The notes: a model not told the origin generated them from the sequence alone. A stretch of 64,000 bases of DNA from Tubulanus polymorphus (GCF_964204645.1 NC_134026.1:12051950-12115949), one strand, 5' to 3'; numbered from the stretch's first letter, positions 206 to 39,829 are shown. Program-made: numbers and translations.

Positions 206-727
206 TCAGGTGCGTGGTCTTGCGGTTTCAAAAGTGCGTGCACTTTTCAAATATTTGTCTAGTGTCAAATCTTCCTGACCTAGGAATTTTACTCGGAGTT
301 CATTACTACGGCACTTTTCAACGATCTGGTCTCTGATCATCTCAGACTCTTTGTTGCCATAGTCACAAGATCGGACAAGGTCTCTGAGTGCGGTAGCATA
401 CTGGTCGATAGTTTCACTTTCATTCTGTGCTCGTTGGCGAAATTTATAACGTTCAGCTATAGTGTTCTTCTTTGGTTCGAAGTAGGCCTTCAATGCAGCC
501 TTCGCTTCTGCAAACGAAGTCTTTGATCCAGGGAGTGCAGCAAACACCCTCTGAACAGATGCTCCCATACAATGGAGCAAAGTAGCTCTGCGTATCTTGT
601 CCTCCTTCTGGTCCACGCCAGAGGCTACCTCGAAAAATTCGAATGAGGCCAGCCATGAACCCCATTCGGCTGCCAGGTCTGTGGCGTTCAAGTTCAACGG
701 GGCCGGAGCCCGAAGATTTTCGGCCAT
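206..727 (-). pseudogene. Gypsy gag-like protein; frameshifted near 206, with CCHC zinc knuckle residues continuing in another frame (CAYCKKKGHYARKC)
   Basis: ORF has LLHCMG, ERYKFRQRAQ..ETIDQY..ALR.L...C.YG and MIRDQIV motifs typical of Mag-type gag; likely ATG at 727 (MAENL). Confidence 0.8.
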
Positions 728-851
728 TTTAATTTTCACAGGCGGGTTGAATGTTTAACAATCGTACCTGTTTCGACGATCAAATTCGACCTCCAACGGA
801 CGAAGAATACAAAAATACACCGCTCTATATCAACATTAGTGTTCCAAATTT

Positions 852-864
852 ATCCTCGTCGCCA
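852..864 (-). promoter_or_regulatory. Primer-binding site complementary to the 3' end of tRNA-Ser(GCT)
   Basis: Minus strand reads TGGCGACGAGGAT, 2 nt inside the LTR end. Confidence 0.75.
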
Positions 865-866
865 TA

Positions 867-992
867 TGTAGCATCGTCCAGCCAAGATGTTTCCGATATA
901 AGATTAAGATTGATATAAAGATAAAGGTAGTAGTTTATTCATGGTTTCCGTTACAACGCTTTCTAGCCTGCGCCAGGTGGCAGCATCATACA
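867..992 (-). repeat. Putative 5' LTR (126 bp)
   Basis: TGTA...TACA ends, AATAAA on the minus strand near 935-940, abuts the PBS; partner LTR is outside the window. Confidence 0.65.
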
Positions 993-1086
993 ATGTACTA
1001 TCCTACAATCGTCAAGGTGTGTAATATCAGTACTTGTCCAATGAGATTGCAGAACTGTCGAAAGGGGAGAAATGCCTGAGCAAAGC

Positions 1087-1175
1087 AGTAATTGGAAAGT
1101 GGGCTTTCAGATCAGAGGTCGTGCGGTCGAGACACCACTCATCACCACAAGTAATTTTTTTTCCTAATAAATGGG
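1087..1175 (+). repeat. Left terminal inverted repeat (89 bp)
   Basis: Reverse complement of 18173-18262 apart from a 1-nt indel. Confidence 0.95.
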
Positions 1176-1496
1176 AGATAGAAAAGGATTCTTAGCAACA
1201 ATAAATAACAGAATTAAACCAGCAAAAAACAATTTGAAATAAAAAAGTTAGTTGATGTTACAAAAGAAATTGAACATAAAATATTGAAATTAGAAAAGAT
1301 AAAAACTAAATATGGAGAGAAAGTATCGGCGAATTTAAGCTACTGCAATGTTAGTACATCGCGAGAATTTAAAGTGTTTTTACCTGATAAATGGGTTTCA
1401 TTGAGTACAGAGGAATTAAAAGATTTAGAAGGATTTAAAATAATCTATCATGGGAAAAATGAAGACGGTCATCATGATTTAGAAATTGTTGATTAA
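1171..1496 (+). pseudogene. Small Polinton protein (TKYG...VFLP motif), frameshifted near 1230-1240
   Basis: TAAATG start at 1171 inside the TIR; first frame stops near 1240 and continues as ORF 1284-1496. Confidence 0.65.
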
Positions 1497-2438
1497 ATAA
1501 GAAATAAAAATAATGAATATCTAGAATCCAAAATGACCTTAGTCGTTTTATTGAACAACTACAATCATACAGTCAAACATCTGTTACATGTTATTATAAG
1601 AGAGTGCTTCATTTGAATATTGATCAATCAAACAGGTGTTGCACAACGTTGTTGTTATATTGGATAGCTAGCAGTTATATAATAAGCACGCAGTACATAC
1701 AACACACACACACAGGACAGGAGGATAGTCATTCTCTCTCGTGATTAAAAGGAATATTTCAATGTTTTTACGGTAAGTTTTAGCAAAACCACCCGACTTG
1801 ACTCACAGAGTTTTTAGGGGATAAGCATCCCGTTATTGAGAGGCGCCACGAGATACCTATCCCCAAGCATTTCTACTTACACCCCTGTGACCCACACCTC
1901 ACCAATTCTCCTTCAATGGTTGACAGGAAACACATTATATTAAAGGCGCCTAATGCATTTCCTATTAACCCCTTACCCTCGAAAGGAGGATCGAAAGTCG
2001 AAACTGAAGGAGAACCACGGAGGGTGGACATTTTCGAAATGCCCCTGCAAGCCAAAAAAATATGCTAAAAAAATATATGAAATTTGAAATTATAAATTAT
2101 TCCGAATGAAAAGAATATAAGAATGAAAACTGATAAATGAATTATGGATTTTTAACTTAATTATGATATAATTTTTAATCATATTAGTAATCGATTACCA
2201 TGTTAATTGATTAACAAATTCAAATTCAAATTCAAATAATTCATTTTAGCATCACACCCCACCCAGTGCTGCCATCTTTCAATTTAAGAAAAAACTAATA
2301 ATAAGAAACGACTGTAATACAATATTCAAGTAAAAACAAAATAAATTAATAAAAATAATGAATATCTAGAATCCGAAATGACTTATCTGGACAATTTAAT
2401 TGCTCCGCATAGATAGACAAAAGTAGTGAGATATTCAA

Positions 2439-2834
2439 TTATTTTTTTTGCTTTTTTTCTAAAATATTAATCCATTTTTTTATTATCAATTTTGGAATTT
2501 CAGAAGTATTTTCATTTTTGATAGCATTTGTTTCAGAATTATTTATATCATGAATTTTATTTGATTTCTTATACCAATTACACCCAATCAAAATGAATAC
2601 AATTACAAATCCAACTGTAAAATATAGATATTTATCAAATATTCTATTATTAGAAGGAGTAGAAATAAGAATATTTTCACCATTTTTATTAACATTTTTA
2701 TTACTTATTTTTTCTTTTACAGCTTTTTTATATTCTTGTGATTTAATTCCTAATTGCCGTGACCATTCAATTTGTTTCTGTGATCTCGGTTTTGTCTTCA
2801 CAGTTAATTCCTTCACTTCTTCCACCTCGCTCAT
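2439..2834 (-). CDS. Hypothetical single-pass membrane protein (131 aa)
   Basis: TAAATG start; hydrophobic stretch YLYFTVGFVIVFILIGC. Confidence 0.75.
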   Translation of the reverse strand: MSEVEEVKELTVKTKPRSQKQIEWSRQLGIKSQEYKKAVKEKISNKNVNKNGENILISTPSNNRIFDKYLYFTVGFVIVFILIGCNWYKKSNKIHDINNSETNAIKNENTSEIPKLIIKKWINILEKKQKK

Positions 2835-3372
2835 TTATTATAGAAATATTTTTACTTTCAATATTTGAAAATGTTATAACCCCAGTTGATAATAATGTCA
2901 TAAATCCACCTAATTGAAATGATAAATATCCAATCCATTTATTTAATTCAGTCATAACTAAATAGTCATTTTTTAAATCGGAATATAATCTATTTTCATC
3001 TTCAATTGGTAGTATATAATTACATAATTTACTATAACCTTTTACTACATTTTCTGATATCGCGTCATTAATTCTAGCTGTTCTCGCGGCTTCATAAATC
3101 TTAAATAATCTAATAATTTCATCTGATTTCATTGTATCGAATTCATCATAAGTTAAATTTTTACCGACAAAATTTCTACATTTTCCAGATGCTATTAATA
3201 TTTCTAATTGATGTTTACAGTAAAGATAATATTCATAATTATTATTTGTTGTAACATTATTTAAAGCACCATCATCTGGAATTAATTTGTTTTCTGTTAT
3301 TCCTAAATCATCTAAAGTTTTTTCAATTGGAACATCACCATTTTTAGATTTTATTTTCTTTTCACCTACCAT
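2767..3372 (-). CDS. Hypothetical protein (201 aa) with a C-terminal hydrophobic segment
   Basis: T7-GTTATA-TAAATG start; intact ORF. Confidence 0.75.
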   Translation of the reverse strand: MVGEKKIKSKNGDVPIEKTLDDLGITENKLIPDDGALNNVTTNNNYEYYLYCKHQLEILIASGKCRNFVGKNLTYDEFDTMKSDEIIRLFKIYEAARTARINDAISENVVKGYSKLCNYILPIEDENRLYSDLKNDYLVMTELNKWIGYLSFQLGGFMTLLSTGVITFSNIESKNISIINERGGRSEGINCEDKTEITETN

Positions 3373-3403
3373 TTATATAACAAAAAAATTAGTTGTGATG
3401 TTG

Positions 3404-3641
3404 CAACTAGAATTCAACTAGATTAACAAGCTAGTTGAAATATTGTTGTGTTTGTTTATTTCTTGTTAAATCTAGTTGATTTTTGTTTCAACTACTAACA
3501 ACTAGAATTCAACTAGAATGTAACTAGAATTAAACTAGATTAACAAGCTAGTTAAAATATTGTTAAATCTAGTTGATTTTTGTTACAACTACCAATAACT
3601 AGAATTCAACTAGAATTCAACTAGATTAACAAACTAGTTGA
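3404..3641. repeat. Intergenic array of direct and inverted CAACTAG/CTAGTTG repeats
   Basis: CAACTAGAATT units and CTAGTT(G) counterparts, arranged in larger duplicated blocks. Confidence 0.8.
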
Positions 3642-3643
3642 AT

Positions 3644-4251
3644 TTAAATAAATTCATATTTAAATGGGTGTTGTAATCTAAATAGTAACTTTGATCTTTT
3701 AATATTTTTCAACTTATCCATATATTCATTATGTAAATCATGTGGAATAATATCATTTTCCTCAAGTGCATTTTTCATCGATTTTCTATCTTTATTGTAG
3801 AATAAAACTAGAAATCTAATGTTTTCTCTAAAGTCTTTAACAATTGAATTATATTTTTGATTTAAAACCCATGTTGTTATCCCAAAATGTCTCCCAGAGA
3901 AAGCTAGATAACATAACTCACTTTCTCTGACTTTTGAATCATGTAAATTTGCGCAATCATCTATGATAAATAATGTATTTGATCCTTTATAAATATCAAT
4001 TGCTATTTTTATACAATTATCTAAATTTTCTTTTACTGTTTTAGGATCTAATATAATAAATTTATTTTTCTAGTAATATTTCTATCATAAGTTTGATTAA
4101 ATTCATATGTTGGGCAAAATAATACTATGTTATCAAAATAGTTTTCATAAACAGTATCTAATAAATTTAATATAAAATAAGTTTTTCCACAATTTGTTAC
4201 GCCAGATATTAACATATTATGAGGCTCAAATATAAATAATTCCTTATTCAT
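3644..4251 (-). pseudogene. A32-like (FtsK/HerA superfamily) packaging ATPase with one frameshift near 4065
   Basis: Walker A GVTNCGKT; after the frameshift, Walker B LFIIDD and the SGRHFGITTWVLNQ motif; stop at 3644. Confidence 0.9.
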
Positions 4252-5379
4252 TTATATATTTTTAATTTTACTTGATAATATCCATTCATTAATTTTATCT
4301 GGCCATCCAACCCATTTTACTAAAGAATATTTTTTTCTTTTAATAGTTTTTGTTTTTAATACTTTTTCAATTTTATATTCTTGTTCTAGATTTTCAGTAG
4401 TTAAACTTAATTCTTCTTCGTAAAAGTAGCCATCAACTTCTTCACCATCTAAATCTTCTAATTTATAGACATATGGTTTTGTTGTTATTACCTTTTTTAT
4501 TTTATATATTTCCCTAGTAAAATTTCGATCGTATCCTTTGTCAAATATCTTTTTATACTTAGATATTCTAACATTTTGGCCAACTTTAAATTTAGGTTCA
4601 CCAAAATCATCTACAAGAAATGCTCCATATAAATTATTCCAAACAATTTCAGCATTTTCAGGTTTTCTAGCATCAATAGGTTTCATTCCAATAGAAGAAT
4701 GATAAGAATTATTATATCCTTCTATCAATTTTGGTAAAACATCAATCCATTTAAAAGTATTATTTGCTGTAAAATATTTCCACATTCTTGTTCTTAATGT
4801 TCTATTAAATCGTTCAACAACTGCTGCTTTTTTATCCGATTTTGTTGAAAAATATTTAATATTATGATTGTCTAAGAGTTCATGAACAAGTGAATTATCA
4901 AACTCTTTTCCATCATCAAATTGTATTTTTTCTGGTTTTAGTTTATCATCCGAAAGAAATTTTCTTAAAACATTTGATGTTTGTACAGCATCTTTTCTAT
5001 AAAGTGGGAAACTCCATACATAACGACTAAAAATATCAATTATAATCAATAACCACCAATAATCATCATTATCTTCCTTAACATTTTTCGTATCAATTAA
5101 ATCTCCTTGCCACTGTTGATCTACATAACTTACCATAGTTTTACGAGTTTTATATTTTCTAACAATTTTTTTATGTGTTGTGTATGTTGGTTGTTCTAAC
5201 ATAAATTCATTTATATCTTTATATTTAATTAAATTGTGTGGGATTATCTTATCTAATTTATCTTGTTTTACTTTACGCCATATATTTTTGGTAGAAGAAT
5301 AAGCAACCGAACTCTCAGGGTTGTAATATAAATTTCTTAAATATTGTTCTTTAGTATTAGGAGTTTTTTTACCTCCCAT
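4252..5379 (-). CDS. Retroviral-like (rve) integrase with C-terminal chromodomain
   Basis: WQGDL, IDIFSRY, FDDGKEF and VERFNRTL form the DDE motif; C-terminal YKIEKVL...LVKWVGWPDKINEW is a chromodomain. Confidence 0.95.
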   Translation of the reverse strand: MGGKKTPNTKEQYLRNLYYNPESSVAYSSTKNIWRKVKQDKLDKIIPHNLIKYKDINEFMLEQPTYTTHKKIVRKYKTRKTMVSYVDQQWQGDLIDTKNVKEDNDDYWWLLIIIDIFSRYVWSFPLYRKDAVQTSNVLRKFLSDDKLKPEKIQFDDGKEFDNSLVHELLDNHNIKYFSTKSDKKAAVVERFNRTLRTRMWKYFTANNTFKWIDVLPKLIEGYNNSYHSSIGMKPIDARKPENAEIVWNNLYGAFLVDDFGEPKFKVGQNVRISKYKKIFDKGYDRNFTREIYKIKKVITTKPYVYKLEDLDGEEVDGYFYEEELSLTTENLEQEYKIEKVLKTKTIKRKKYSLVKWVGWPDKINEWILSSKIKNI

Positions 5380-5409
5380 TTATATATCGTTAATTTTAAC
5401 TTTATATTT

Positions 5410-6657
5410 CTAATATTGAATACTATCTAATTGGGAATTTACAATATTTAATTGTGCATCAGATATAATATAAATGTGCATTTTAAAATTTTTGTCTCCT
5501 CTTTTCTTTTTCATGAATAATTGTATTCCATCTTTAGTGTTCTGTAGTTTTTTTCCAGAACCATGTAATGAATTATCCTCTGTTGTTCTAAAATCTAACC
5601 ATAATGCATATTTATTGCCGGTATAATAATCAATTTGATTAATATTACAATTTTCAAATGATTTTACTTTTTCATTCATAAAATGTTTTCTAATTTCTGG
5701 CCATTGATTAATCATTCTCATTCCTTGACAAAATATTTTATTTGCTATTCCTTCGATAGTTATTTCTACTTTTGTTATTTCAGGATTATAATAATTATCT
5801 ACCTTTATTGCGCCATTAGTATATGTTGCAATGGTAAAAAATATTAATATACCTTTAATAGATCTTCTTGGGAAGTTAATATTCTCATTAATTATTTCAT
5901 CATTTGCATTAATAGTTACAGTTTTAAATTTATCAATATAATCATATAATAATGAAAATCCTTGATTGTATTGAGTTTGAATTGTGCTAGCAATATTTTC
6001 ATTAGTTACTGTGTTATATTCTAAACATATATTCGATAATTTATAACCCATATCTTTAACAACGCTAGATAATACAATTTCATTTACAGGAGCAAATGTT
6101 ATCTCAAATATAATATCTTCTTGAATTGCGTATTTATATAAAGGTGCATTATTATTTATCAATTCAAAGTCTAATGGAATTTTATATTTGCTTCCATAAA
6201 TCTTTTTAATCAAATTATCTGTGGCACGAGTTACTATTGCGTCATTAGCTCCTGATCTTAATTTATTATGGTTTTCCGATTGAATACCCTGAAATACCAT
6301 ATTATTTCTATTTTCATTAGTTAACCATAAATCTTTATAATGCATAAATAAATTATAATCATCTAATGAGAAAACTGTTTCTGGACCAATCTTTATTGTT
6401 AATTTTTTAATCAAATATCTCCCAACATTATCGACAACATAATTATTATCATAACCAGTTACTTTTATATCGGCTGATAAATAAATACTATTTGGAACAT
6501 AAAAAGTATTTTGTGTTAATCTAGGAATTGTAACATATAAAGTTTCATCGGGATTAATATTTGAAGGCTTATGTGTAATTATATGATGTGATCTTTCTGC
6601 TTTAATAGCATTAGATATTCTAGAAATCTTAGAAGGACTTATAAAACTCCCACTCAT
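5410..6657 (-). CDS. Major capsid protein (predicted double jelly-roll), 415 aa
   Basis: Size, beta-rich pattern (LIKKLTIKIG, YKIPLDF, YKLSNICLEY, ITKVEITIEG) and context; intact ORF. Confidence 0.8.
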   Translation of the reverse strand: MSGSFISPSKISRISNAIKAERSHHIITHKPSNINPDETLYVTIPRLTQNTFYVPNSIYLSADIKVTGYDNNYVVDNVGRYLIKKLTIKIGPETVFSLDDYNLFMHYKDLWLTNENRNNMVFQGIQSENHNKLRSGANDAIVTRATDNLIKKIYGSKYKIPLDFELINNNAPLYKYAIQEDIIFEITFAPVNEIVLSSVVKDMGYKLSNICLEYNTVTNENIASTIQTQYNQGFSLLYDYIDKFKTVTINANDEIINENINFPRRSIKGILIFFTIATYTNGAIKVDNYYNPEITKVEITIEGIANKIFCQGMRMINQWPEIRKHFMNEKVKSFENCNINQIDYYTGNKYALWLDFRTTEDNSLHGSGKKLQNTKDGIQLFMKKKRGDKNFKMHIYIISDAQLNIVNSQLDSIQY

Positions 6658-6697
6658 TTATTTAACAAAAAAATTAATTATTTATTTTTAATCATGT

Positions 6698-8129
6698 TTA
6701 CTTGATATTTTTTGATATCATATTCACTAACCCAAAAATAATAGCAGTTGCAACTGTAATTAAAAATAAAATAATATGTTCAGCAGCAAAGTTAAGAATA
6801 TTCCCAGCAGATTTCAATATAAAACCAACAATTGATGCAATAATTCCTGGTAAAGCTGAAGCAGATTTTTTAAATAGTTCCCATAAATAATTTGCTAATT
6901 TCTTTAAACCATCTTTAACTTTATCTTGTATAGAATTATTACCTGGGGGTTTATCTGGTTTATTTGGAGTAGGAGTAGATTTCAAAGAATTTGATATTGC
7001 TAAACCAATTGTTGTAAATAACATAGTTACAGCTGTTAGAATTGAAAGAATTGTTATTCCTTCTAATTTAAATAATAACTTTATTCTATCTTTTAATGAT
7101 ATTTCAGAATTTGGTTTAATCAACAAATCTTTAAAAATAACTTTTAATCTATTAATATTATAATCATATGATTCTAATAATAATTTAATTTCTTCTTTCT
7201 GTACTTCTAAATTATCTTTTAAATTATTAATTTCTTTTTCTAAACGTAATTCTTTTTGCCTATATTCTATTTCATCAATTACTTGATGATCTAAATCAGA
7301 CTTTAGTTGTTCTATTTCTTTATTTGCATTAGTTAATTCTTTTTCCAAATACATAAATTTTTTGATCTCTTATACTTTTATTATGTGCAATTTTATCAGC
7401 TTCATTTCTTATACTAATAATTTCTCTAATTGCTTCATCAGAAAATATATTTAAATCTTCTAATTGTTGATCTGTTGCATCAAGTAATCCATTCGGTAAA
7501 AGTTTTTCAATTAGAACTTTATTTGATTTAAGTTTACTAGTTTTAGAAGTTTTATTCTGTTCAGAAGTTGTTTCTGTTTTTGATTTCTTTTTGATTATTT
7601 CAAATAATTCATTAATTCTTTGTTTAAATACGTCTATATCATTATCAGTTAATTCTTGTTTTATAACATCAGTTATTACATTACTATTACTTATTCTTTT
7701 AATTCTATCTGGATCTAATTTTCTCAAAGTTAATTTTGTTATTATTTTTTTTTAATAAGTGATATCAATATAATAATCATCTTTCAAACGATAATAACAT
7801 TTACCATTATCTAAAAATTTTAATTGATCTGCTAAAAGTCCAACGTCTTCATCATTTATGTTAAGTTTAGATTTTTCAATTAAATCTTCTAATTTAGGTA
7901 TTTTGTTTAAATTATCTAATTCTTGTTTTACTAAATCTGGGTCTAAATTTTCAGGATTTAATTGTGATTCTGAATTTTTAATATAATCAGGCATATTTAA
8001 ATTATTATTATATTCTGGCTCATTGCCATCATTAAAACTTGTTTCACTAAAATCAGGTTGTTGTTCATCAGTTATACCAGGTTCATCAAAAGGATCCATT
8101 CCAATATCTTCTCCACCTTCTACATCCAT
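6698..8129 (-). pseudogene. Coiled-coil protein with acidic N-terminus and C-terminal membrane helices; one gene broken into three ORFs
   Basis: Single TAAATG start at 8129; in-frame TAA at 7752-7754; frameshift near 7340. Confidence 0.7.
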
Positions 8130-8145
8130 TTATATAATAAAAAAA

Positions 8146-9536
8146 TTAAAATTTAAGATATAATATTCCTCCTATAACAATTCCTATACAAGTTTAAGCT
8201 AATTTAGTATTTTCATGTAATTTATTATCATTATCAGTTTTAATTATATCATGTTGAATATTATCAGTTTTAATATTTTCTGTACTATTGTAATCTTTTA
8301 TTTTGGAATCATTATCCAATTTAATATTCTTAGTTTTAGTTTCTGTTGATTGAATATGTTTTTTATTTTTTTCACTTTCCATTAATTTTGGAGCAGTAAT
8401 TATCTTTTTATTTATATCATTCAATCCAAATGAATTATTTATTGTTGCAGTTTTAATTAGATTATTATAACCAATTATATTTCCCATCTTTAATACTAAA
8501 TCATTAGAAATAATTAATAGATTAGGGCCTATACAATAATTTAATCTAATATGTGATTTATCTAAATAATTTTGATATCTTACAATGTTTTCTGGAATCG
8601 ATCTATTTTTATCATTATAAATGGAATCTTCAAATAATACTTTAAATTGTTTCTGCGTATCAAATGATGTATTTAAATTTCCAATTATTGGGGATCTTGT
8701 TTCAACTTGCGCACCTAAAATACATATCAAATAAGTTCTAATAGATTGATTTATTCTTTGTATACCTGATTGTGTAAAACCTTCATTATTTTCTAAAATG
8801 AAATAAACCCAACCATTATTGTTTTCTTGTTTTAAATTATCATAAAATGTCGGTAATTTATTGAAATTTAATGTTTCTAAATCATTTGTTTCTATTTTAC
8901 CATAACCTCATTTATTACTATAGATGTTATAAAAACTATTAAATGGTATGGAAGTGCACAATATTCTGCAATCTTTTTAGGGCAAGGAAGTGATCTTATT
9001 GTTCCAATTTTTGTTCTAAAATCAGAATTATTTATATCTATATTAAATTCATTACAAATTTTATAAAACTTTGATAAATTAATATTATTATCTTATTCTT
9101 TAAAATACCTAGATCCTGGTAAAGCGCACTCTAATTCATTTAATATTATTCTGATTTGAAAGTATGTATGAAATCTAAATAAACTTTGAATTAATTTATA
9201 TTTAGAATTATTCAAATGATCATTCCAACTAATTCCACAACCTGTTGTTGCACAATAAACAGCAAAATTTAATTGGTTTTGCCAATACTTCATATTAGAT
9301 TTTAATAACCATTGTTTTTCATCTTTCAATTTTTTAATATTAATTAAATATACATGAAATATATTTTCCATCTTTGCATTAAAATTATTAGTTTCAGTAA
9401 CATAAATTTCTAAATTAGTTAGTAATGAATCTAAAACTTCATTTCTATATGTAATATCTTTATTAAAATCTATTGCTGGAATATTATATTTAATTGATTT
9501 ATTATATTGGAAAGCTTTTGGAAAACTATCTACCAT
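8146..9536 (-). pseudogene. Conserved-looking hypothetical protein (WQNQLNFAVYCATTGCGIS motif) with C-terminal hydrophobic tail, disrupted
   Basis: TAAATG start at 9536; fragments 9093-9536 and 8194-8730; reading through the stop at 8194 gives TCIGIVIGGILYLKF. Confidence 0.65.
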
Positions 9537-9552
9537 TTATATAATTAAAAAA

Positions 9553-9987
9553 TTAATAATTCATTAATTCTTTTAATAATTTATCTTGTTCTTCAACTGT
9601 TATATGACCATTTAAACTTATTATATAATCTAGTGTATTCTTTAATTTATTAATTCCTTTTATATTAGTTTTAATTTTTTCTTTATTACTTTTTATATTT
9701 AATTTTGAACTTATACCAGTTAATACACTTGAACTTAATCCTAATACACCAATTGAAATAGCTAAAGGTGTTAATGGGCTGAATATTGCTAAAAATGTTA
9801 TTACAGAACTAATTGTAACCGAACCACTTATAATCAAATAATATATAATTTTACTTTTTAAATATTTTTTCTTTTTTATCTTTAAGTCACTTTCAAATTC
9901 TAATATTTGTTTTTCTAAATATGTTTTTAATTTAGTTTTATTTATATCATGAGGAATAATATCAATACTATCAACTTTATCTTCCAT
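9553..9987 (-). CDS. Hypothetical two-TM membrane protein (144 aa)
   Basis: T8-CTAAA-TAAATG start; central hydrophobic hairpin. Confidence 0.75.
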   Translation of the reverse strand: MEDKVDSIDIIPHDINKTKLKTYLEKQILEFESDLKIKKKKYLKSKIIYYLIISGSVTISSVITFLAIFSPLTPLAISIGVLGLSSSVLTGISSKLNIKSNKEKIKTNIKGINKLKNTLDYIISLNGHITVEEQDKLLKELMNY

Positions 9988-10006
9988 TTATTTAGAAAAA
10001 AAATTA

Positions 10007-10429
10007 CTAATTAGTAAATTTATATGCTACAAATATAACAATAACTGTTCCACCTAAAATCCAAATTATTTCATATTTCTGTTGTTCTTTACTTGGGGTG
10101 TAATAATCTGATAATTTAGGTTTGTATTGATGTAATTTTTCTTTATTTGTTACGGCGTTATATAAACTCATTGCATCATCAACTGATTGAAAATCTCTAT
10201 GTGAAATCTTCTGATCATATAATTCTTTATTGATGTAATCCATATAGTTTTGCCTCCTTTCTCTATATTCTTCTGCTGCTTTATTGTATTTCTCTAATGC
10301 TAAGTTATGTCTTCTTTGTTCTCCTAATGAACTATTTTTATCAATATGTTTAAATAAATATCCACCACCAGTAAATGCTAAAGCGTTAACAATTGCCGAT
10401 CCTATAATAGTTATAATTGCAGAAGCCAT
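10007..10429 (-). CDS. Hypothetical membrane protein (140 aa) with hydrophobic N- and C-termini
   Basis: TAAATG start; IGSAIVNALAFTGGGYLF, central helical region, C-terminal TM. Confidence 0.8.
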   Translation of the reverse strand: MASAIITIIGSAIVNALAFTGGGYLFKHIDKNSSLGEQRRHNLALEKYNKAAEEYRERRQNYMDYINKELYDQKISHRDFQSVDDAMSLYNAVTNKEKLHQYKPKLSDYYTPSKEQQKYEIIWILGGTVIVIFVAYKFTN

Positions 10430-10453
10430 TTATTTAGTAAAATAATTACGCAT

Positions 10454-10675
10454 TTATATGGGAGGAATATATTTTTGTTTTTCCAAATAATCAATAGTTA
10501 AATTAGATAAAGTAATTGCTAATGTTAATTTTAAAATATCATTTATATCAAATCTATCAACATTAACACTTCCCATTTTAAATACTTTTTTTAATACCAT
10601 TGAATAACCAACAGTTCCAACTGATAGTAATGCGCCATTATATAATCCAGTTATTATCCACTTATTATCACTCAT
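10454..10675 (-). CDS. Small hydrophobic protein (73 aa)
   Basis: T9-GATAAA-TAAATG start; fits the tight gene packing. Confidence 0.7.
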   Translation of the reverse strand: MSDNKWIITGLYNGALLSVGTVGYSMVLKKVFKMGSVNVDRFDINDILKLTLAITLSNLTIDYLEKQKYIPPI

Positions 10676-10682
10676 TTATTTA

Positions 10683-11033
10683 TCAAAAAAAAATACTATC
10701 ATCAAAATATTTAGTTAACTTATTTACGATTAATTCAACATTTATTTCATTACTAGTTTCATTTGTATATATTTCAATTATTATTTTTTTAATATCATCG
10801 ATGATAAAATCTTCAGCTAATTCATAAAATCTTAAAGATTCTCTAATTAAATTAGTAATCTTTTCTACATTTAAAGTTTCTTTATCTATTGTTTTTTCAT
10901 ACTCAAATGTTGTTTCATTTGAAAATGCAATATTTTTGATATGTGTAATTACATCATTAATGTTAAATTTCATTTCTTTCTCACGTTTAAAATCAAATCC
11001 AAAACATATACTCGGTCCAACAGTTATATTCAT
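10683..11033 (-). CDS. Hypothetical protein (116 aa)
   Basis: T6-CACTATA-TAAATG start. Confidence 0.7.
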   Translation of the reverse strand: MNITVGPSICFGFDFKREKEMKFNINDVITHIKNIAFSNETTFEYEKTIDKETLNVEKITNLIRESLRFYELAEDFIIDDIKKIIIEIYTNETSNEINVELIVNKLTKYFDDSIFF

Positions 11034-11049
11034 TTATATAGTGAAAAAA

Positions 11050-11812
11050 TTACTCTTTACATCTTATAACTAATTCATAAATTACGGGAAAGTTATTCAA
11101 ATCAATTAAATAACCATTATGATTTCTTATTTCTAATTTAAAATTATTGAAATGTGGAATACAAGGTTTGAAATCATATTCAGTTAAATTATAATTTATT
11201 TGAGTTCCAAATTGTTTGACATTTTTTAATGGTAAAATATTTAATAAACCAGAATTACAAATTGTATCTTTAGTTGCTTCAAATGTTTTTGTTGGGTCAA
11301 TCAAATTGCAATAAATATAAAAATGTGTAAAAGGTATTAAGTTTGATCTACCTTCTGCGTATGCTGTAACAATATCTGGGTTAATTCCTAACAGTTTACC
11401 TAAAGGTTTTCTTACTTTAAATTTAAATTGTTCGTCATTAGCTAACCTAATCTTTATTTTATTAGAACTATCACTTTTTAAAATTCTAATACTAAATCCG
11501 GAATCACTTCCTAATTTAGCTCGAGCTTTTCTATTAATTTTTTGTGCTAATGTATCTAAACTATATAATCCTGGTTTTAAATATATATATAAAAAACCAT
11601 TTATTCCTTTTTTTGTAAAAGATTGAAAAAATTAAATGTTCTAGACTTTTATCCTTTATATTATAAAAAGAATTACATAAACTTATATTAACTAATTTTA
11701 AATCTACACAATTCTTAAATTCTCTATTTAATTGAACTAGTAAATTATGTGATTTATAATTTGTAAGTTTTCTAGAATCAACAAATATTCTGTATTCTTT
11801 TAATTCTACCAT
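11050..11812 (-). pseudogene. Minor capsid protein (penton, single jelly-roll), frameshifted near 11590
   Basis: N-terminal IFVDSR...SFYNI, internal FKPGLYS and FYIYCNLI, C-terminal LEIRNHNGYLIDLNN match the penton pattern. Confidence 0.75.
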
Positions 11813-11880
11813 TATTTATAACATAAACAAATTACCGCTCATCACTAAAAATTAATTTTAATAAAATTTTTCCTAAATAA

Positions 11881-13197
11881 ATGGATGAGAAGATAGCATG
11901 CGAAATTTGTGGTGAACTTCTAAGAAAAAGTAATATGGCTCGACATATGAAAAAACATGATGAAAATTATAAACCCCCTAAACTAAACTGTCCAAAATGT
12001 AATAAATTATTCTCAAGAAATTATGTTAAAAAACATTCAGAGAAGTGTAAAATTAATGGCGCAACGGCTAATGTTGATAGTAATGAAAGTAATAGTAATT
12101 CTGCTGAAGTTGAACCTGAAATTATTTGGAAAAGACCTTTCTTATTCTATGACAAGGATAATATAAAAGATCATATCTGTGAGCCTTGTCAAGTAAAATA
12201 TAGCCCTGAAAATAAAGAAGATTGGGAGAATCATCAATTTCGTAAAGCACATATAGATAAAATTTCTAATAAATTTGAAACTGAATTCAATGAAAGAAAA
12301 AATAATTTATTAGAAAAAATAAAATATGAGAAAACGTTACCAGATAATAAAGAAACAGTTGAAAAGTTAGAAAAACAATATAATGAATTAACAAGAAAAA
12401 CATATTATTGTAAATATTGTCAATTGATTATTACAACAAGTAATTCAAATCTACATAATAGAACAATAAAACATAAAGAAAACGTAAGAAAATACCAAGA
12501 GCTTAATGAAGATCTATTACCAATACATTATAAACAAAAATGCCCACAATGTAGTTATGCAACCTTAAGACAAGAAGGTACTGTGTTATTTTGTAATGAA
12601 TGTGGATGGCAAAAGAATTTATGGAGTGAAGAAAAAACTAGAAATTTTCTCATAGATCCAAAATTAAATTATCTAGATGAAATTTTTAAAATATTTTCTA
12701 TAGAAGATCATACACCAGAATATATGCAATGGCTTGAAAAAATGAAAATAATAGAAAATAAAAATGGTGAAATAACTAAAAAAGATATTATAAAAACAAT
12801 TATTCCGTCAACATTTAACACAAAACCAAAGAAAATGTATTTATATTTATTATTTAACGATTATTATGAAAAACCTAAATTAACAAAAGAAGATATGAAA
12901 AATATAAAAAAAATATTCAAACAAATATTAATGTATCATTTGGAAAATAGAATAACAGATTCAATAAATTATGAATTCTTTTTAAATAAGATTGTAGATT
13001 ATTTATACATAGATATTATAATTCCATTTGATGAATTAACAAACAAAAAGAAACAAAGAGAGCGAGATGAAATGTGGAACAAGATAGAACTTTATTTAAA
13101 TAAGAAAAATGAAATGGAAGAAGAACCTAAACAATTAAATGAAAATGAAGAAGCCAATAGTGATTTCGAGTATGATGATATTGATTTTATGTTTTAA
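11881..13197 (+). CDS. Multi-zinc-finger protein fused to a poxvirus A2/VLTF3-like late transcription factor domain
   Basis: N-terminal C2H2/C2HC fingers; then a CPQC-x13-CNEC ribbon, NF...KL.YL, IFKQIL...EN...SINYEFFLNKIVD and a C-terminal W, resembling vaccinia A2 ([13 protein letters not shown], recalled from memory). Confidence 0.8.
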   Translation: MDEKIACEICGELLRKSNMARHMKKHDENYKPPKLNCPKCNKLFSRNYVKKHSEKCKINGATANVDSNESNSNSAEVEPEIIWKRPFLFYDKDNIKDHICEPCQVKYSPENKEDWENHQFRKAHIDKISNKFETEFNERKNNLLEKIKYEKTLPDNKETVEKLEKQYNELTRKTYYCKYCQLIITTSNSNLHNRTIKHKENVRKYQELNEDLLPIHYKQKCPQCSYATLRQEGTVLFCNECGWQKNLWSEEKTRNFLIDPKLNYLDEIFKIFSIEDHTPEYMQWLEKMKIIENKNGEITKKDIIKTIIPSTFNTKPKKMYLYLLFNDYYEKPKLTKEDMKNIKKIFKQILMYHLENRITDSINYEFFLNKIVDYLYIDIIIPFDELTNKKKQRERDEMWNKIELYLNKKNEMEEEPKQLNENEEANSDFEYDDIDFMF

Positions 13198-16100
13198 TAA
13201 CCATAAGGTAATGTTTTTATACCATCACCTGAAATATGTCTTTTATCATCAAATGGATTTAAACTAGTTTTTTCAACTTCATTAATGTACATCTCATGAT
13301 CTTCTGATCTTATACAATTCATTTTGTGTTTCATTACAATTGAGTTATATAAACACTTTATATAATCTTGAAATTCTATATGTTTATCAACCACATGTTT
13401 TGTTATTCCTTTTAACTTTTTAGCTTCATGATCTTTTGTTCTATAACTATACATTTTACTTCTTATCCCAACAAATTCAATCATTTCATCACCCCCTAAT
13501 TCATCTTTAAACTTACCAGGAATCTTTTTATTATCATTGCTAAATAGTTCATGATCTTTGGGATAATTGCTAAAATCAAAATGATGTTTTAATGTTTTTA
13601 AGTCTTTTGTTATGTCATTTGTCTTGATTTTTAGTATGTAACTGTCAGTATTGAAGCAAATTAATGGAAATCCACAGTTAAATGTATCATCTTCAGTTGA
13701 TAAATCATAAACATAATCTGATGGGTTATATATTTCAAATAAATCTTTAACTTCTTCAGTTAAATCTTTTTCTGTGTGGCTTAGATTAAAGCAATTTGGT
13801 TTAGATTTAATCAATCCAATATTCATATTGAAGCCTATTGAATTACATAATATATTTAACCCTGATATAGCAACTTTTCCTTTCTGTGCAAAGGTTATCT
13901 TTTTATCCTTTGTAAATTTTTTAGCACCATCTGCTGCATAGAATCCAATGAAGAACCATTTTCTTAAAATATTTTTTGCATTTGATACATAATCTGGAAC
14001 TATCTTTTCTTTTGTTGAAGTATTACTTTTCACTATTGCATGAATATAGAATTCATCATTATATTTTATAGCAAAATCTTTAGGATTATTTACAAGTATT
14101 CTATAAACTGCTGATGATTTCATAACATCCATGATTTTAAATGTTTTATTTGGATAAACTTCTTCACAGAATTTCTTAATTCTTTCTAATAATTTTAAGT
14201 CTTGATTGCATAAATACCAACAATATTTATTACCCCAAACATAATTATACACACCTGCTGAACCATCACCCATGAAAAATCCTTTGATAAAATATTCTTT
14301 TTCTTCTAATGTTTCGGGTTCTATGTTATAAATATTATCAATTATTTCATCAAATGACATATGATTCATTCTTTGGAAAAATCTTTTATGTAATAATTCA
14401 TCTCCAATTTTTATATCAGTTGGTTTTATTTCATCGCCATTTCGTTTAATTAAACTATGATCTTCTGTAACATCTACAAACCCTAATTTAGTTCTAACTC
14501 TATAGATTTTCTTATTTGTTTTATGCCTAATAATATTCTTTAATTTTTTCCATCCATTTCTTGTCCAAACATCCATTAAACCATTTATTTGTATTAATTC
14601 TTTTTCACCATATGAAATATAACATTCATTTTGTTTTGGAATTATTTCTGAAATTCTTCTTATCAATATTTCATAATTACATTTTAATAATATTGGGGTG
14701 TCAGCTGTTACAGAATCAAAATATAATATTTCAATATGCTTTTCCCCAAAAAGTGGTTGTAAAACATTATAATAAAAATCATACATTAATAATTTTGATA
14801 CTTCTAAAACAGTTGAACCAATGAATATAGGTTTATTAAATTTCATTGACGTTCTTTTTAATTTAACTGCTGTTCAATAATCTTCAAATCTTTTATTTCC
14901 TAAATGTCTAGGACTTGATTGTAAATGTCTTAATCTTTCAGAATTATTTACTAATTCAATATCATTTCTATTTCTAATATTTTCACATGTTTTACCATAA
15001 AAACTATTATTCATTAATTTGAAGAAATCTTTTTCAAAATCTGTTTTTGATATTGTTCTCCGTTGAGTATTGAAATCTATATATTTTTCTAACCACTTCG
15101 ATTGATTAAATTCAATATATCTATGTACTTTCTTTAATTTCATTCCTTGTTTTAGATAAAATTTTAACATTCTATAATGAACAATATAATTGTATTTATT
15201 ATTTTGAGTAAGTATTAATTTTTCTGTAAAAACATGATCTTTCGGTTTTATTTTCTTCTGGTATTCACTTAAATAACTATCATCTACGGTTAAATGTTCT
15301 GGGCAATAAGGTAAGTTTCTTGTTTTAAACTTTATATTTTCAGGATATTCTAAATCAACTACAAAGAAATAACCAATTGGCGCTTCATCTTTTAAACTCG
15401 CAATTGCGCTTTCCCAATCAGTTTTATCATCATTTTCAACTTCTGTTCATATAAAATTTTTGTATGGTTGAGGTTGCATCATTGCCCAACCATATAAATT
15501 ATTGGCGTCAATATATAATAATTTATATTCATCATTTGCTTTAAAATATCTATCTCCCATAACACCACTAATTCCACCTCTAATTGATTTTTCAAATAAT
15601 AAAATCATATCTGGTTCTTTTAATAAATCTTATTCTACATTTGTATATTTTAAACCACATTGCCAGGTTAAACCAGGACTAGAGTAGCAATAACAAGGAT
15701 CAACATTAAAATGATTCAAATTAACTTCTCTAAATTTTTCAAATATGTCAGCCAATTTCATAACATCTGATTATAAATATAAATCAACTAATTCACCATG
15801 ATTTTTCATCTTAAAATGGTTCCAAATATTTAATGTTCTATTAAACACTTCGTCTTTCACATACTCCTCTTTTAATTGATCATAAAATTGATCTTTTAAT
15901 AATTCTGTTACATTAAAATCATTGTGTGTTTTATAAAATGAATAAGGAATTGCGCCTTTATATCTCAATAATTTAAAATCTTGTTCATTTGGATAATAAT
16001 ATCGAGTTATAACAAAATCATTATCAACTAAACTTTTTGATAAATTATCTAATGAACTTGCTAGAAATCTATAAGAATCTAAAAATCTAATGCAACCAAA

Positions 16101-18177
16101 TTGAAATGAAATATAATTTTCAGATGTTTTAGCTAATAGTTTAAAATCATATTTTCTTACATTTACACCATTCATAGCATTATATTCTTCTATTTCTTGA
16201 TTAATTGCGCCCAATTTTCCCGATAATTGTTTTATAAATAGATGGGTATCATAGCCTGATAAATTATGAAATAATATTGGTACGAAATTAACTTTCTTAG
16301 CTTGTAAATTGCAATCTTCATGAGCAGCTCCACGATATTTTGAATTTAAATGATCATGATCTCTAACTTTTTTATCAAATGAATAAAAACGTTTTTCACA
16401 ATAACAACAATGAGTTGCATAATTAAAATCAATTTCAAAATCATTAACTACATTTTCACCTCTAAAAGAAATATATTGACTTTCATATAATTCAGGATAA
16501 TTTGATTTTATATAAATTCCATAAGCAGCAGCTCTTTGATGAACTTTTTTAATTGTATTTATAATTGGTGGGTCTTGTATTGTGTCTTCATTTAATTCAT
16601 TTCCTTTATCCATTGATTTTAATAATTGCTTTTTGTTATATATTTCTTTTCTATCTTGATCAGTTAATTCTTTATTCAACGATTCAAAATCCCCATAAAT
16701 TACAAATGGAACAATATTCTTGAATTTATGATTAGTAAATTTCAATTTATAATCTTTTTCTGTTGGCATTATTAATTTACAAAAATCTTTATTATCACAT
16801 AATTCTTTATGTTTTAATAATGTATTCTCAGTCATAAATTTAGATAAACATTTTCTACATAGATAAATTTTATGATGATGATCACTTTCTGTTCTAAAGA
16901 ATAAATCAATTTGTTTTAACCACATATAATGTTCATTTTCATCTTTTTTGTAATATAACAAATCTATAGCATTTTCATCATCATAATATTCTGTTAAATA
17001 TAAAGCTTCCAATGTATAATCTTTAATATTTTCACCTTTTGTCTTTGGTAATTGCATTAATTCGAATACATTTATTTTTAAATTATTGACTTTTTCTATT
17101 TTAGAAATCATTTTTATAGTTACTGGATATTGATCAATTTTATATAATGTTTCATATTTCCGATAATCTGTTATTCTACAAACATTTTCCTGTGTTGGAT
17201 GTAAGCAACTAATAATTGACCATAGAAAACATTTATTATCTTCATTTTGAATATTTATTACTGCTTTTGTTGTAAATGGTAATTTAATATAAGATGATGC
17301 TTTAATATCCTTTTCTGTTGTAAAGTTTGAATCATTTTTAAACATTTTATTACTTTTTGATGTTTTGTTTCTTTTTGTATTATAAACATTTAAATCTAAA
17401 TATATAATTTCATTCAATGTTAAGCCAGAACCCTCAAAATATCTTTCTTCAATATGACGTTTAAATTCATTTAATATTTTTTTCTAACTTCTCTTTTATT
17501 TGTGTTTTTGAAATTATTTCTTCAGAGAGTGTTTGAATATTATAATTCATTTTTTCTTCTGACTTTATAAAACTTACTTTCCCAGAGATACTAATTTTTG
17601 GATTTTCAACATCTGTTATCAAATATAGTATTTTTTCTATTATTTCATTAAATTTACTATAATCTTCTATTCTTGTTCCTTTAAAAAATCTAAATATAAT
17701 AGCTGCAGGACCAATTTTACTATGTAATGTTTCTAAAATTTCAATTGTATCTTTTATTTCTAGTGAATCAATATAATTTCTAACATTTTCCATGTAAGGT
17801 TTATTTGAAATGGATTTAGTTTTTGAATTTGGTTTTTTTACTTTTTGAGGTTTATCGTCAAAATAATCTTTTCCTAAAACATTATTGCTCAAATTTTGGT
17901 GGTGTTTTTGTGATTCGAGATGTCTATTATAATTCCTTTTTGTTATAAACTCATTACAAACTTCACATTTTATTTCATCCACATTCATATTTTCTAATCG
18001 TTCTTTTCTTTCATTGGAATTTTCTGAAGTTTCAAAATCTATTCCATTTTTTATATGATTTGCAGTTTTTTCATGTCGTGATTTTTGGGATTTATCGATG
18101 TATTTTTTACAATATTGACAATCATATTGATTTTTATTAACATTATTGTTTTCTGGCTGGTGTTCATTCTCCCCCAT
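13194..18177 (-). pseudogene. Protein-primed family B DNA polymerase with N-terminal zinc fingers and an intein; 1 frameshift and 4 in-frame stops
   Basis: Exo motifs YGDFES, FHNLSGYD, FLDS; motif A YIDANNLYGWAM; motif B KLMNNSFYGK; motif C YFD/TDS; KMYSY, KLKGI and DDKR. Frameshift in an A7 run near 17480; stops at 15771, 15630, ~15447 and 14874. Confidence 0.95.
13650..14714 (-). mobile_element. Intein (355 aa) with LAGLIDADG homing endonuclease in PolB motif C
   Basis: YFD|SVTADTP ... VTEDH (block B) ... FIKGFFMGDG and FFIGFYAADG ... YVYDLST ... LICFN|TDS; removal restores YFDTDS. Confidence 0.95.
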
Positions 18178-18262
18178 TTATTAGGAAAAAAAATTACTTG
18201 TGGTGATGAGTGGTGTCTCGACCGCACGACCTCTGATCTGAAAGCCCACTTTTCCAATTACT
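18173..18262 (-). repeat. Right terminal inverted repeat (90 bp)
   Basis: Inverted copy of 1087-1175; includes the pPolB start codon. Confidence 0.95.
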
Positions 18263-18285
18263 CAAAGCTAATCACATTGCGAAAC

Positions 18286-19330
18286 TGGGATCGAGGTACT
18301 GTGTGTCGCGTGGATTACCCTTATACAAAGTGGCTGGGATCGAGGTGCTGTGTGACGCGTGGATTACCCTTATACAAAGTGGCTGGGATCGGGGTGCTGT
18401 GTGACGCGTGGATTACCATTATACAAAGTGGCTGGGATCGAGGTGCTGTGTGACGCGTGAATTACCCTTATACAAAGTGGCTGGGATAGAGGTGTTGTGT
18501 GTCGTGTGGATTACCCTTATACAAAGTGGCTGGGATCGAGGTGCTGTGTGTCGCGTGGATTACCTTTATACAAAGTGGCTGGGATCGGGGTGCTGTGTGT
18601 CGTGTGGATTACCCTTATACAAAGTGGCTGGGATCGAGGTGCTGTGTGACGCGTGAATTACCCTTATACAAAGTGGCTGGGATCGGGGTGCTGTGTGACG
18701 CGTGGATTACCCTTATACAAAGTGGCTGGGATCGGGGTGCTGTGTGACGCGTGGATTACCCTTATACAAAGTGGCTGGGATCGAGGTGCTGTGTGTCGCG
18801 TGGATTACCCTTATACAAAGTGGCTGGGATCGAGGTGCTGTGTGACGCGTGGATTACCCTTATACAAAGTGGCTGGGATCGAGGTGCTGTGTGACGCGTG
18901 AATTACCCTTATACAAAGTGGCTGGGATCGGGGTGCTGTGTGACGCGTGGATTACCCTTATACAAAGTGGCTGGGATCGAGGTGCTGTGTGACGCGTGAA
19001 TTACCCTTATACAAAGTGGCTGGGATCGGGGTGCTGTGTGACGCGTGGATTACCCTTATACAAAGTGGCTGGGATCGGGGTGCTGTGTGACGCGTGGATC
19101 ACCCTTATACAAAGTGGCTCGGATCGGGGTGCTGTGTGGCGTGGGGATTACCCTTATACAAAGTGGCTGGGATCGGGGTGCTGTGTGGCGTGGGGATTAC
19201 CCTTATACAAAGTGGCTGGGATCGAGGGGCTGTGTGGCGTGGGGATTACGCTTATATAAAGTGGCTGGGATCGAGGTGCTGTGTGTCGCGTGGATTACCC
19301 TTATATAATATTGCTAGGATCGAGGTTTTT
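18286..19330. repeat. 49-bp tandem minisatellite, about 21 copies
   Basis: Unit GGCTGGGATCGAGGTGCTGTGTGACGCGTGGATTACCCTTATACAAAGT repeated head-to-tail without spacers. Confidence 0.95.
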
Positions 19331-20157: not shown

Positions 20158-20169
20158 CAAAATGGCGGC
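20158..20169 (+). promoter_or_regulatory. YY1-like motif overlapping the MRPS18C start codon
   Basis: CAAAATGGCGGC matches the YY1 consensus common at housekeeping gene starts. Confidence 0.5.
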
Positions 20170-20282
20170 CCCCATGCTTAGAAAGGGATCTTCGATTTCG
20201 TCGCTAAAATGTTATCACAGACTCTGTTCATACTCGAAAAATCAACAATTTCAACCATCCCAGGGTGTTTTGTTAATAAGTT
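20162..20282 (+). CDS. MRPS18C: Mitochondrial ribosomal protein S18C, predicted exon 1 (transit peptide MAAPMLRK...)
   Basis: ATG in strong context; basic, Ser-rich peptide with no acidic residues; GTAAGT donor; phase 1 matches the next exon. Confidence 0.7.
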
Positions 20283-26853: not shown

Positions 26854-26904
26854 ATTAGATATTTAAATCATTTAACTCAATTCAATAATTATAATGTAGA
26901 ATTG

Positions 26905-38293: not shown

Positions 38294-38420
38294 AATACGC
38301 AGCTTCTCAGTCAATTTGTATCTCCATATACAGGCCGAATATATGGTCGACATGTAACAGGATTATGTTTACCGATGCAAAGGCGTGTTTCACATCTGAT
38401 TAATCGAGCCAGAAGATTTG
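38294..38420 (+). CDS. MRPS18C: MRPS18C exon 4 (NTQLLSQFVSPYTGRIYGRHVTGLC...RAR)
   Basis: Ribosomal S18 signature; canonical CAG and GTAAGT boundaries. Confidence 0.95.
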
Positions 38421-39829
38421 GTAAGTTACTAAGTTTTCATGTATTGCCAATGTATAGCTAGCCAAATTATCAAAATAACACAACAATTGGCGCTAAACAT
38501 AACTAGTCTTTTTTCAATGATAAGTATACTGACTTATAAATCCCCCTCTTCCAACTTTGAAACCACTAACAGAAATTTCAGTTGACCCAAAACATAAATA
38601 AAGATGGTGCCACCCACCCTGATTATCGTGATAATCATGTTAACAAAAGTATAAGCGCTTAGCACCACAAAGGACTTTTTTCAAGCGCATTGATTTCTAG
38701 CTGTACTTGATTTTCTTATCAGGTAATAAGTTATTGACAGTTCTATTTTGACAAAGTCTAAATGGCTTTGGAGACCTGTTCTGAAATAACTTGCTAACAA
38801 AATGCCATGTATTGATACTCGTCTTTTGTACTGTACCCTCTCAATGTGCTATTAGTGACATTTGAAAAATAATCGATCCAAGAAAGAACAGTGCAATGAG
38901 AATTGTGTGAAGCATTCCAGTTTTGTGAAAATTTGTTCCATCCGGAAAATGCCTGTATTTTGCGATGCATCTCAGGCAGTTTTTTTTTTTTCGTTAAGCG
39001 CACATTCCCAGCCAAAAGTATTCCTCTGGACCCGGTTCCTCAGTTCTAGCTGAAGCACAAGTTTACTGTGGCAGTGATTCATAAAGTTTAATGAGCTTTT
39101 TATCGTTACTGTCTTTTGTTACACCGAAGACTTTCCCATTAACTGTCCAAACTTTAGAATATAGGTCAGAGTTTAATGCGCGCTCACTAATTTTGAAATC
39201 TCCGGTCGCAGATCTCCCCTTATTATGATTCCAGTTCCTTTTAAGGATGAACGCTCATAAATGATTGAGTCTCTTGAATTGCGATTAAAGAAACGGACAA
39301 TTATCCCATCTGGTCTTTTAGTACCATTTACATATATATTGGTTCCTTCGTTTGAACTCTTATGAGCAACTTATCAGAAGCTGAAATTTTGGAAGGTAAT
39401 CTAAGTTTGTGATACAGGGTTCCGTAGTGAAATTCCTAGCTCAGAGAATTGACAAGAAATGTGGTTGTTAGTTAATTCAGTTTATTGATGAGCCCACCGA
39501 GCTGTTGCGAGAGCTAGAACAAGAGTCTAGAATAAGAGAGTGACAAGAGAGTCAGTCCACGACAAGAGTATTTATACTCTCAGATGGCCACGTCAATTGA
39601 ACAATGACCATCTGGATTACTTGATGATCACGAAGGCCACGTTGGTAAAACAATGACCATCTGGATTAATCACGAAGGCCATATTTACAAATGTAGAGTT
39701 TCAAATATGTGCTCAAATTTCCGGAGCATATGTTTCACTGTAAGCTATCTAGCTCATCTTCTATATATCACTGTATCTATATACATCTAGTACTTGACTG
39801 CAATAAACTGATATCCATCTCAGTGTAGA

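Follow-up and report, generated by a model that had tools for sequence, protein, structure and literature searches.

The inteins that share an insertion site with the one described here are the pol-c inteins of archaeal and Mimivirus PolBs, which are class-1, start with Ser or Cys and occupy the same D/TDS site with a Thr at +1 (Ogata et al. 2005, PMC549080). Giant-virus-derived DNA polymerase genes that contain inteins have been described from the nuclear scaffolds of three organisms, Klebsormidium, Tetrabaena and Hondaea (Gallot-Lavallee et al. 2023, PMC10710043); neither the main text of that report nor its two text supplements mention polinton, metazoa or animal, and the supplements also lack maverick, adintovir and EVE. 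A eukaryote-wide survey places inteins in fungi, plastids and NCLDVs and, in its accessible text, lists neither an intein of an animal nucleus nor any Polinton (Green et al. 2018, PMC5784728), and a 2021 review bases a drug-target argument on metazoan genomes being free of inteins (PMC8529194). Polinton protein-primed PolBs (pPolBs) with HNH and VSR nuclease inserts are described in a report whose accessible text mentions intein, LAGLIDADG and homing 0 times each (Jeong et al. 2023, 10.1101/2023.08.22.554363), and such inserts have been suggested to derive from intein invasions (Krupovic et al. 2024, PMC11071308). In the openly searchable literature, outside subscription journals, InBase and Repbase, we found no splicing-domain intein from a Polinton or an animal genome, and the accessible parts of PMC12220804, PMC13768754, PMC3671162 and PMC5718144 contain none.

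Here we describe a candidate of this kind in the window, the whole 64,000-nucleotide stretch of DNA that was analysed (Table 1). We consider it probable that the locus holds an intact intein in the protein-primed polymerase of a Polinton in an animal genome, and that this intein belongs to a Polinton-specific clade with a likely single, old origin in an RNA-primed viral polymerase and likely persists by homing.

Table 1. Positions of the features of the window, with the evidence for each where recorded
Feature	Position	Strand	Evidence
Polinton/Maverick element, 17.2 kb, ~24% GC against 30-47% around it	1087..18262	.	
Terminal inverted repeats (TIRs), ~92 nt	1087-1178 and 18170-18262		
Target-site duplication (TSD), 6 bp, perfect	left 1081..1086, right 18263-18268	+ (left)	
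Packaging ATPase, C-terminal piece, A32-like	3647..4069	-	Pfam Pox_A32 E 2e-6
Retrovirus-like integrase with chromodomain	4252..5379	-	Pfam rve E 6e-10
Probable major capsid protein	5410..6657	-	weak: Pfam Capsid_N E 0.01
C-extein, begins with Thr+1 and then the motif C catalytic Asp	13194..13649	-	
Intein coding sequence, 355 codons, stop-free, class-1 signature and LAGLIDADG endonuclease	13650..14714	-	motifs, profiles, fold, reads
C-terminal splicing part, ~residues 321-355; block F Asp337, Phe354, Asn355	13650..13754	-	
LAGLIDADG endonuclease part, ~residues 121-313	13776..14354	-	profile, model, Foldseek, motifs
LAGLIDADG motif 2, GFYAADG, Asp262	13926-13946	-	
LAGLIDADG motif 1, GFFMGDG, Asp150	14262-14282	-	
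N-terminal splicing (Hint) part, ~residues 1-110; Ser1, block B Thr83/His86 at 14457-14468	14385..14714	-	
N-extein of the protein-primed PolB: zinc-finger leader, exonuclease, polymerase motifs	14715..18177	-	
HNH-like insert in the N-extein, weak	~16302-16415	-	
Flank: gag ORF (206-727), primer-binding-site-like stretch, apparent 5' LTR	206..1086	-	Retrotrans_gag E 9e-6
Candidate first MRPS18C exon	20163-20285		by eye
MRPS18C host exon, AG/GT ends	38294..38422	+	Pfam Ribosomal_S18 E 1e-14

The insert interrupts a conserved protein in frame. In translation it opens with SVTADTP and finishes with LICFN between the flanks YFD and TDS, a junction that the empty homologues P0299-P0301 read as YFD-TDS. 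Its borders are corroborated by 38 raw reads missing precisely 1065 nt, in agreement with the original prediction of an uninterrupted 355-residue insert. The other predicted hallmarks are likewise in place: the N-terminal nucleophile, a TxDH block B (here TEDH), two LAGLIDADG helices, the terminal Asn and the Thr at +1. Together with an Asp at position 4 of block F, these are the class-1 splicing residues as defined previously (PMC4031507). The two helices carry acidic catalytic ends, the equivalents of which are conserved in 11 of 11 aligned Polinton inteins at pairwise identities of 42-86%. Profile searches, on which the prediction had also staked itself, place the TIGR01445 model of the intein N-terminus (30.2 bits, cut-off 24.5) and, narrowly, LAGLIDADG_3 (E 8e-5, 23.2 bits, cut-off 22.5) above their thresholds; Pfam Intein_splicing (E 6e-8, 33.1 bits) does not reach its cut-off of 35.8.

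An AlphaFold model computed from a 39-row alignment has a pLDDT of 93.5 and a pTM of 0.92; a single-sequence model (pLDDT 36.9) was discarded. Among the Foldseek matches listed for the model, endonuclease-bearing inteins take all of the top 14 places, with TliVMA (E 2.4e-17), PI-PkoII, PhoVMA, PI-PfuI and PI-SceI followed by I-DmoI (rmsd ~3.2) and mini-inteins, so that the Hint fold is supported by the model and by its matches to full inteins and mini-inteins alike. The helper His is missing at both of its usual places, with Asp at block F:13 and Phe at the penultimate position; both His residues are common yet dispensable in some inteins (PMC4031507). The penultimate residue of 177 related inteins is His in 88, Lys in 63, Ser in 9, Phe in 6 and another residue in 11, and the block F His is missing in 60 of the 63 Lys-type relatives. 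The penultimate Phe is thus non-canonical, as first noticed, but it is not a special trait: Phe itself is uncommon, and a missing His is ordinary in a group in which 89 of 177 members lack it. Sequence and model together confirm the insert as a full-length class-1-type LAGLIDADG intein that is predicted to splice. Its position at motif C, D/TDS, is that of nearly all of the 191 extracted relatives, with variable residues before the Asp (YFD, YGD, YMD, YSD, ASD, YLD), and the original assignment to the motif-C site of archaeal and mimivirus PolB inteins agrees with the published description (PMC549080).

The surrounding element is a Polinton by its integrase, packaging ATPase, TIRs and 6-bp TSD, with a weak capsid match; a protease gene was not identified between 1087 and 18262. 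TSDs of 6 bp are typical of Polintons/Mavericks. Judged by eye for the LTR, the element reads as sitting inside the LTR of a gag-bearing LTR retrotransposon. About 20 kb away lies the MRPS18C exon, 42 residues long, the best PDB matches of which are mammalian S18c proteins (E 3e-12 to 9e-12; other bS18m, 3e-4). The duplication and the AG/GT-bounded exon, both invoked in the original prediction, are real, and with the retrotransposon flank they suggest, in the assembly, that the element is joined to animal DNA. On the assembly's evidence, the element appears to be integrated in animal-type nuclear DNA, and the original assignment of the gene to a Polinton protein-primed PolB in such DNA is supported.

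Several other properties of the element and its neighbourhood were observed. At either end of the element the TIR stops where the outermost gene begins, at its start codon, so that the same upstream sequence precedes both the polymerase gene and a short ORF at the left end (~1171-1493). The sole large gene on the plus strand encodes a 438-aa multi-zinc-finger protein (11881-13197) and converges with the polymerase gene, their stop codons overlapping. Of 22 ATG ORFs of at least 60 aa, 14 have their start in an A/T-rich motif whose last letters are TAAATG or AAATAATG and which usually follows a run of T; the eight misses are mostly internal or spurious starts. TAAATG is the poxvirus late promoter, and by analogy the starts may be a loose hint of transcription by a helper virus. 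Our literature search found no Polinton paper on such starts, and PMC11296320 mentions neither promoter nor TAAAT. A 49-nt tandem array of 21 copies with 94% match (18285-19326) adjoins the right end of the element. Farther along, a 2.4-kb element (25573-28014) has 631-nt inverted arms that are 98% complementary, internal hairpins, a 24-nt array, a GC content as low as that of the Polinton and two similar ORFs (26038-26637, plus strand; 26905-27552, minus strand), the one tested being without a Pfam match; it is possibly a fold-back derivative of a virus or transposon. PIF1-like helicase pieces at 53668-54770 (plus strand) are probably a Helitron relic, a label we infer.

The host gene in the window is a pseudogene, which the original prediction had missed. 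Its frame breaks near 17470-17483 and in-frame stops lie at 15773, 15632, 15449 and 14876, so that no intact polymerase reading can be recovered from this copy; the intein inside it stays open. All five lesions would spare the intein by chance with a probability of 0.30, and the open frame was rejected as a signal of selection in this copy for that reason. Because the polymerase is a pseudogene, the intein is here most likely a passive passenger. The gene starts at 18177; its zinc-finger leader and the beginning of P0299 are 49% identical. Pieces of the window polymerase have no match to PF03175, and its identity as a protein-primed PolB is supported through the relative P0002 (PF03175, E 5e-17); matches of the relatives are weak (1e-14 to 1e-18), with a stronger one for P0007 (9e-32).

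Sequencing reads reveal sister copies of the element. Half or more of the sampled words are present in 4 of 11 listed runs, all under one species label, the runs of which come from two studies; the raw genomic run X6 carries the same label. The runs listed include no RNA run with the element, a result that has no bearing on expression. From a sample of 12% of X6, 7570 reads were placed on 12900-15900 at 85% likeness, tied to the window through element sequence, as opposed to host flanks, and with depth left unscaled per genome. (A marine metagenome run, X5, gave 14 scattered pieces from a small share and was left out.) Binned depth is 133-260 inside the intein and 221-558 outside. The 38 X6 reads that skip precisely the 1065-nt intein have 28 different starts; in another 38 the intein is likewise skipped but 8 different letters stand at the junction, and in 88 a loose end begins at this same junction. 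The depth inside the intein and the skipping reads together indicate that alleles with the intein and alleles lacking it are both common in the sample. At the four stop codons, 91-100% of X6 reads differ from the window, and the stops are therefore peculiar to the window copy.

These reads bear on whether the element could be DNA of a protist, a symbiont or a free virus mis-joined to the contig instead of animal germline DNA, which we regard as extremely unlikely. The sharp GC step at the element would suit such a mis-join, and short-read runs do not separate integrated from free copies. Against it stand the perfect duplication on both sides inside one apparent retrotransposon LTR, the spliced exon of an animal-type MRPS18C elsewhere on this contig, five disabling lesions of the sort found in a decaying integrated copy, with stops that nearly all sister reads lack, and the presence of the element family in the runs of two studies under a single species label.

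Two protein clusters extend the polymorphism to other Polintons, several members of which are located on contigs of 0.1-1 Mb. Among the 15 members listed of the P0003 90% cluster (136 in total), 7 are occupied, 6 empty and 2 uninformative; among the 15 listed of the P0006 90% cluster (121 in total), 5 are occupied, 1 empty and 9 uninformative. The six empty alleles of the P0003 family have three versions of the site and are otherwise 93-99% identical upstream, and the differences between occupied and empty members cluster within 10 residues of the site. P0003 and the empty P0134, for example, are identical at 130 of 130 upstream residues (11-140) and at 6 of 10 within the ten residues on either side of the site, and the first ten downstream residues in this comparison match a distant occupied polymerase at 10 of 10. 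Such site-centred differences would fit either conversion tracts or escape from cutting. In the P0006 family, P0142 is empty and agrees fully with its occupied sisters over the 140 residues on each side, so that a site which looks cuttable has persisted; this would fit an invasion that is still under way or a nuclease that is inactive. The survey of sister copies for intein-plus and intein-minus alleles that the original prediction proposed thus yields both: they coexist in the X6 species and in two other Polinton families. The polymorphism and the site-centred differences, seen at the protein and read level, would fit cleavage of the empty allele and spread by gene conversion.

The intein belongs to a family, which had also gone unnoticed. 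Searches returned 309 longer proteins (best 120 listed), 46 of similar length and 2019 representatives clustered at 50% (best 150 listed). Among the matches listed, the best to the intein on its own are protein-primed polymerases occupied at the same site: P0002 is 63-65% identical to the window intein, and P0003-7 and P0010-12 are 41-49% identical (P0007, 47%). Of 419 representatives examined, 302 match an intein, 37 of them best to the Polinton set, many being fragments; the best 150 of the 2019 representatives added RNA-primed or fragment relatives only. From 271 matches, 191 inteins were extracted, of which 15 were dropped (9 near-copies, 6 with wrong ends); with the window intein, this gave 177 rows.

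In the resulting tree, from which Mimivirus and archaeal sequences were left outside, all ten Polinton inteins form one clade with SH-like support of 1.0. A quick IQ-TREE run on 52 rows (30 around the Polinton inteins and 22 sampled evenly) recovers the same clade with an SH-aLRT of 100. The clade is nested among inteins of RNA-primed PolBs of giant viruses and phages, and its sister group comprises 16 RNA-primed PolB inteins with a weak support of 91. Within this sister group, P0019 matches the giant-virus metagenome-assembled genome (MAG) locus L002 at 99.7% and P0026 matches L009 at 100%, and three polymerases are phage-type (phrog_262, E ~1e-160; 1e-42 to 1e-53 for the others tested). With giant-virus and phage-type PolBs side by side in a sister group of this support, the tree points to no single donor. 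The direction, into Polintons, is read from one small clade against a large and diverse RNA-primed set in a tree that is not independently rooted.

The original prediction held that the intein had moved into this element from a co-infecting large DNA virus, a claim not supported by its nearest relatives, which are all Polinton inteins of one clade. We regard a recent move of this kind into the Polinton lineage as very unlikely. The insertion site is the mimivirus site, and the nearest outside relatives do include polymerases of giant-virus MAGs, at 40-44% identity to the window intein. However, the closest intein is that of another Polinton (P0002, 65%), phage-type PolBs share the sister group, and neither 37 viral loci nor the best 80 of 130 metagenome loci exceed 41% identity over the full length; 50,697 phage records gave 2 weak matches. 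'Recent' is the part of the proposal that these results largely refute.

Three groups of relatives stand out in their own right. P0010 (MBV2113503.1), an intein-bearing Polinton polymerase, is recorded at NCBI under Candidatus Thiodiazotropha from a bivalve symbiont sample, and is probably DNA of the host or of a virus that ended up in the bacterial bin. The topoisomerase II-like proteins P0008, P0098 and P0194 contain up to three inteins each, two of them related to the pol-c group, which suggests non-allelic spread. P0109, a DNA polymerase delta of Chloropicon primus on a 1.86-Mb contig, has a related intein at YGD/TDS and is a cellular eukaryotic PolB with a pol-c intein.

Movement among Polintons was addressed by comparing intein and polymerase trees, as had been proposed at the outset, and the two are largely congruent: the intein subtrees window/P0002, P0003/P0004/5 and P0006/P0010-12 mirror polymerase subtrees. 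This agreement, P0007 apart, points to long residence in Polintons. The exception, P0007, has a polymerase without a significant BLAST match to the window class (best E 0.4, against P0299), yet its intein lies within the clade, so that at least one crossing from one polymerase class to another has taken place. Going by PMC8502044, the P0007 and window classes may be the Alpha (pfam03175) and Beta classes of adintovirus PolB, respectively. In a tree of the upstream extein (119 rows, with 14 more omitted in which no site was found), 13 polymerases are occupied, with 11 changes of state against a shuffled mean of 12.6, and the polymerases nearest to the window, P0299-P0301 at up to 74% identity, are all empty. 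An AU test on 39 of the 119 rows rejects a single occupied clade with a p of 1.3e-7, a value that overstates the strength because the empty neighbours were picked after the first tree had been seen.

Vertical descent with loss also yields congruent intein and polymerase trees. The intein could have entered the ancestor of a polymerase class once and then been inherited, with losses by recombination with empty alleles, so that it still splices and no longer homes. The mirrored subtrees favour such a history, as does the coexistence of an empty allele with unchanged flanks and occupied ones. We nevertheless judge it unlikely: it would require many independent precise losses (11 changes), the class jump of P0007 requires mobility, sister differences concentrate at the site, and both LAGLIDADG aspartates are retained in every aligned Polinton intein despite their divergence.

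An old entry with subsequent homing, our preferred reading, suggests the following mechanism. Entry into Polintons would have been old and probably single, because the nearest relatives are all Polinton inteins and the branching largely follows the polymerases; the trees point to an RNA-primed viral polymerase as the source, with homing and loss thereafter. In intact copies, established intein biochemistry predicts class-1 splicing through an acyl shift at Ser1, attack by Thr+1 and cyclisation of Asn355. Splicing should be obligatory for polymerase activity, since the insert parts the two motif C aspartates. Where the same cell contains a Polinton lacking the intein, the freed intein would cut its uninterrupted site, and repair templated by an occupied copy would duplicate the intein. 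The patchy distribution could then arise as inteins are lost, empty alleles change their target site and, rarely, an intein jumps to a polymerase of another class. A live animal intein system, in which the intein splices in animal cells and drives through germline copies while empty copies change the catalytic motif to escape and the intein occasionally reaches another class, is a tentative extension that we rate a little below even.

Although the host gene is viral, and not a cellular animal gene, the locus shows that the coding sequence of an intein can be present in nuclear DNA of animal type, brought there by an integrating virus, and that it is part of a family instead of a single relic. 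With occupied and empty alleles side by side in a multi-copy element, the steps of the homing cycle, namely invasion, target escape and loss, become measurable within single animal genomes. The insertion site, common to giant-virus and phage polymerases, is also a record of exchange of DNA by Polintons with other DNA viruses. Inteins of endogenous viruses had been described before, from algae; the locus adds a further class of host for this known intein allele and, on assembly evidence, an animal genome.

Compared with known systems, the locus combines familiar parts in a different setting. The host of pol-c inteins is an RNA-primed PolB (PMC549080), whereas here it is the protein-primed PolB of a Polinton in animal nuclear DNA. 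The cases of PMC10710043 are alike in having an intein in a viral polymerase of an endogenous virus in a eukaryotic nuclear genome, but their hosts are algae and a labyrinthulid and their vehicle is taken to be Nucleocytoviricota, as opposed to a self-integrating, multi-copy Polinton in an animal that has both occupied and empty alleles. Inteins of invertebrate iridoviruses and other NCLDVs (PMC5784728) also belong to DNA viruses, some of which infect animals; these are free large viruses of another phylum, in contrast to integrated, inherited elements. PI-PkoII, TliVMA, PI-PfuI and PI-SceI share the two-domain Hint and LAGLIDADG fold (TM 0.56-0.65, top five), but are 10-18% identical and come from archaeal or yeast cellular hosts. 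Closest by element are the inserts of Jeong et al. and Krupovic et al., which likewise place a nuclease domain in a Polinton polymerase (the window polymerase also has a weak HNH-like insert), and which are described as nuclease domains, with no splicing domain mentioned. The present intein differs from them in its full Hint domain and precise empty alleles; it provides a concrete case for the suggestion that Polinton polymerase inserts stem from inteins (PMC11071308).
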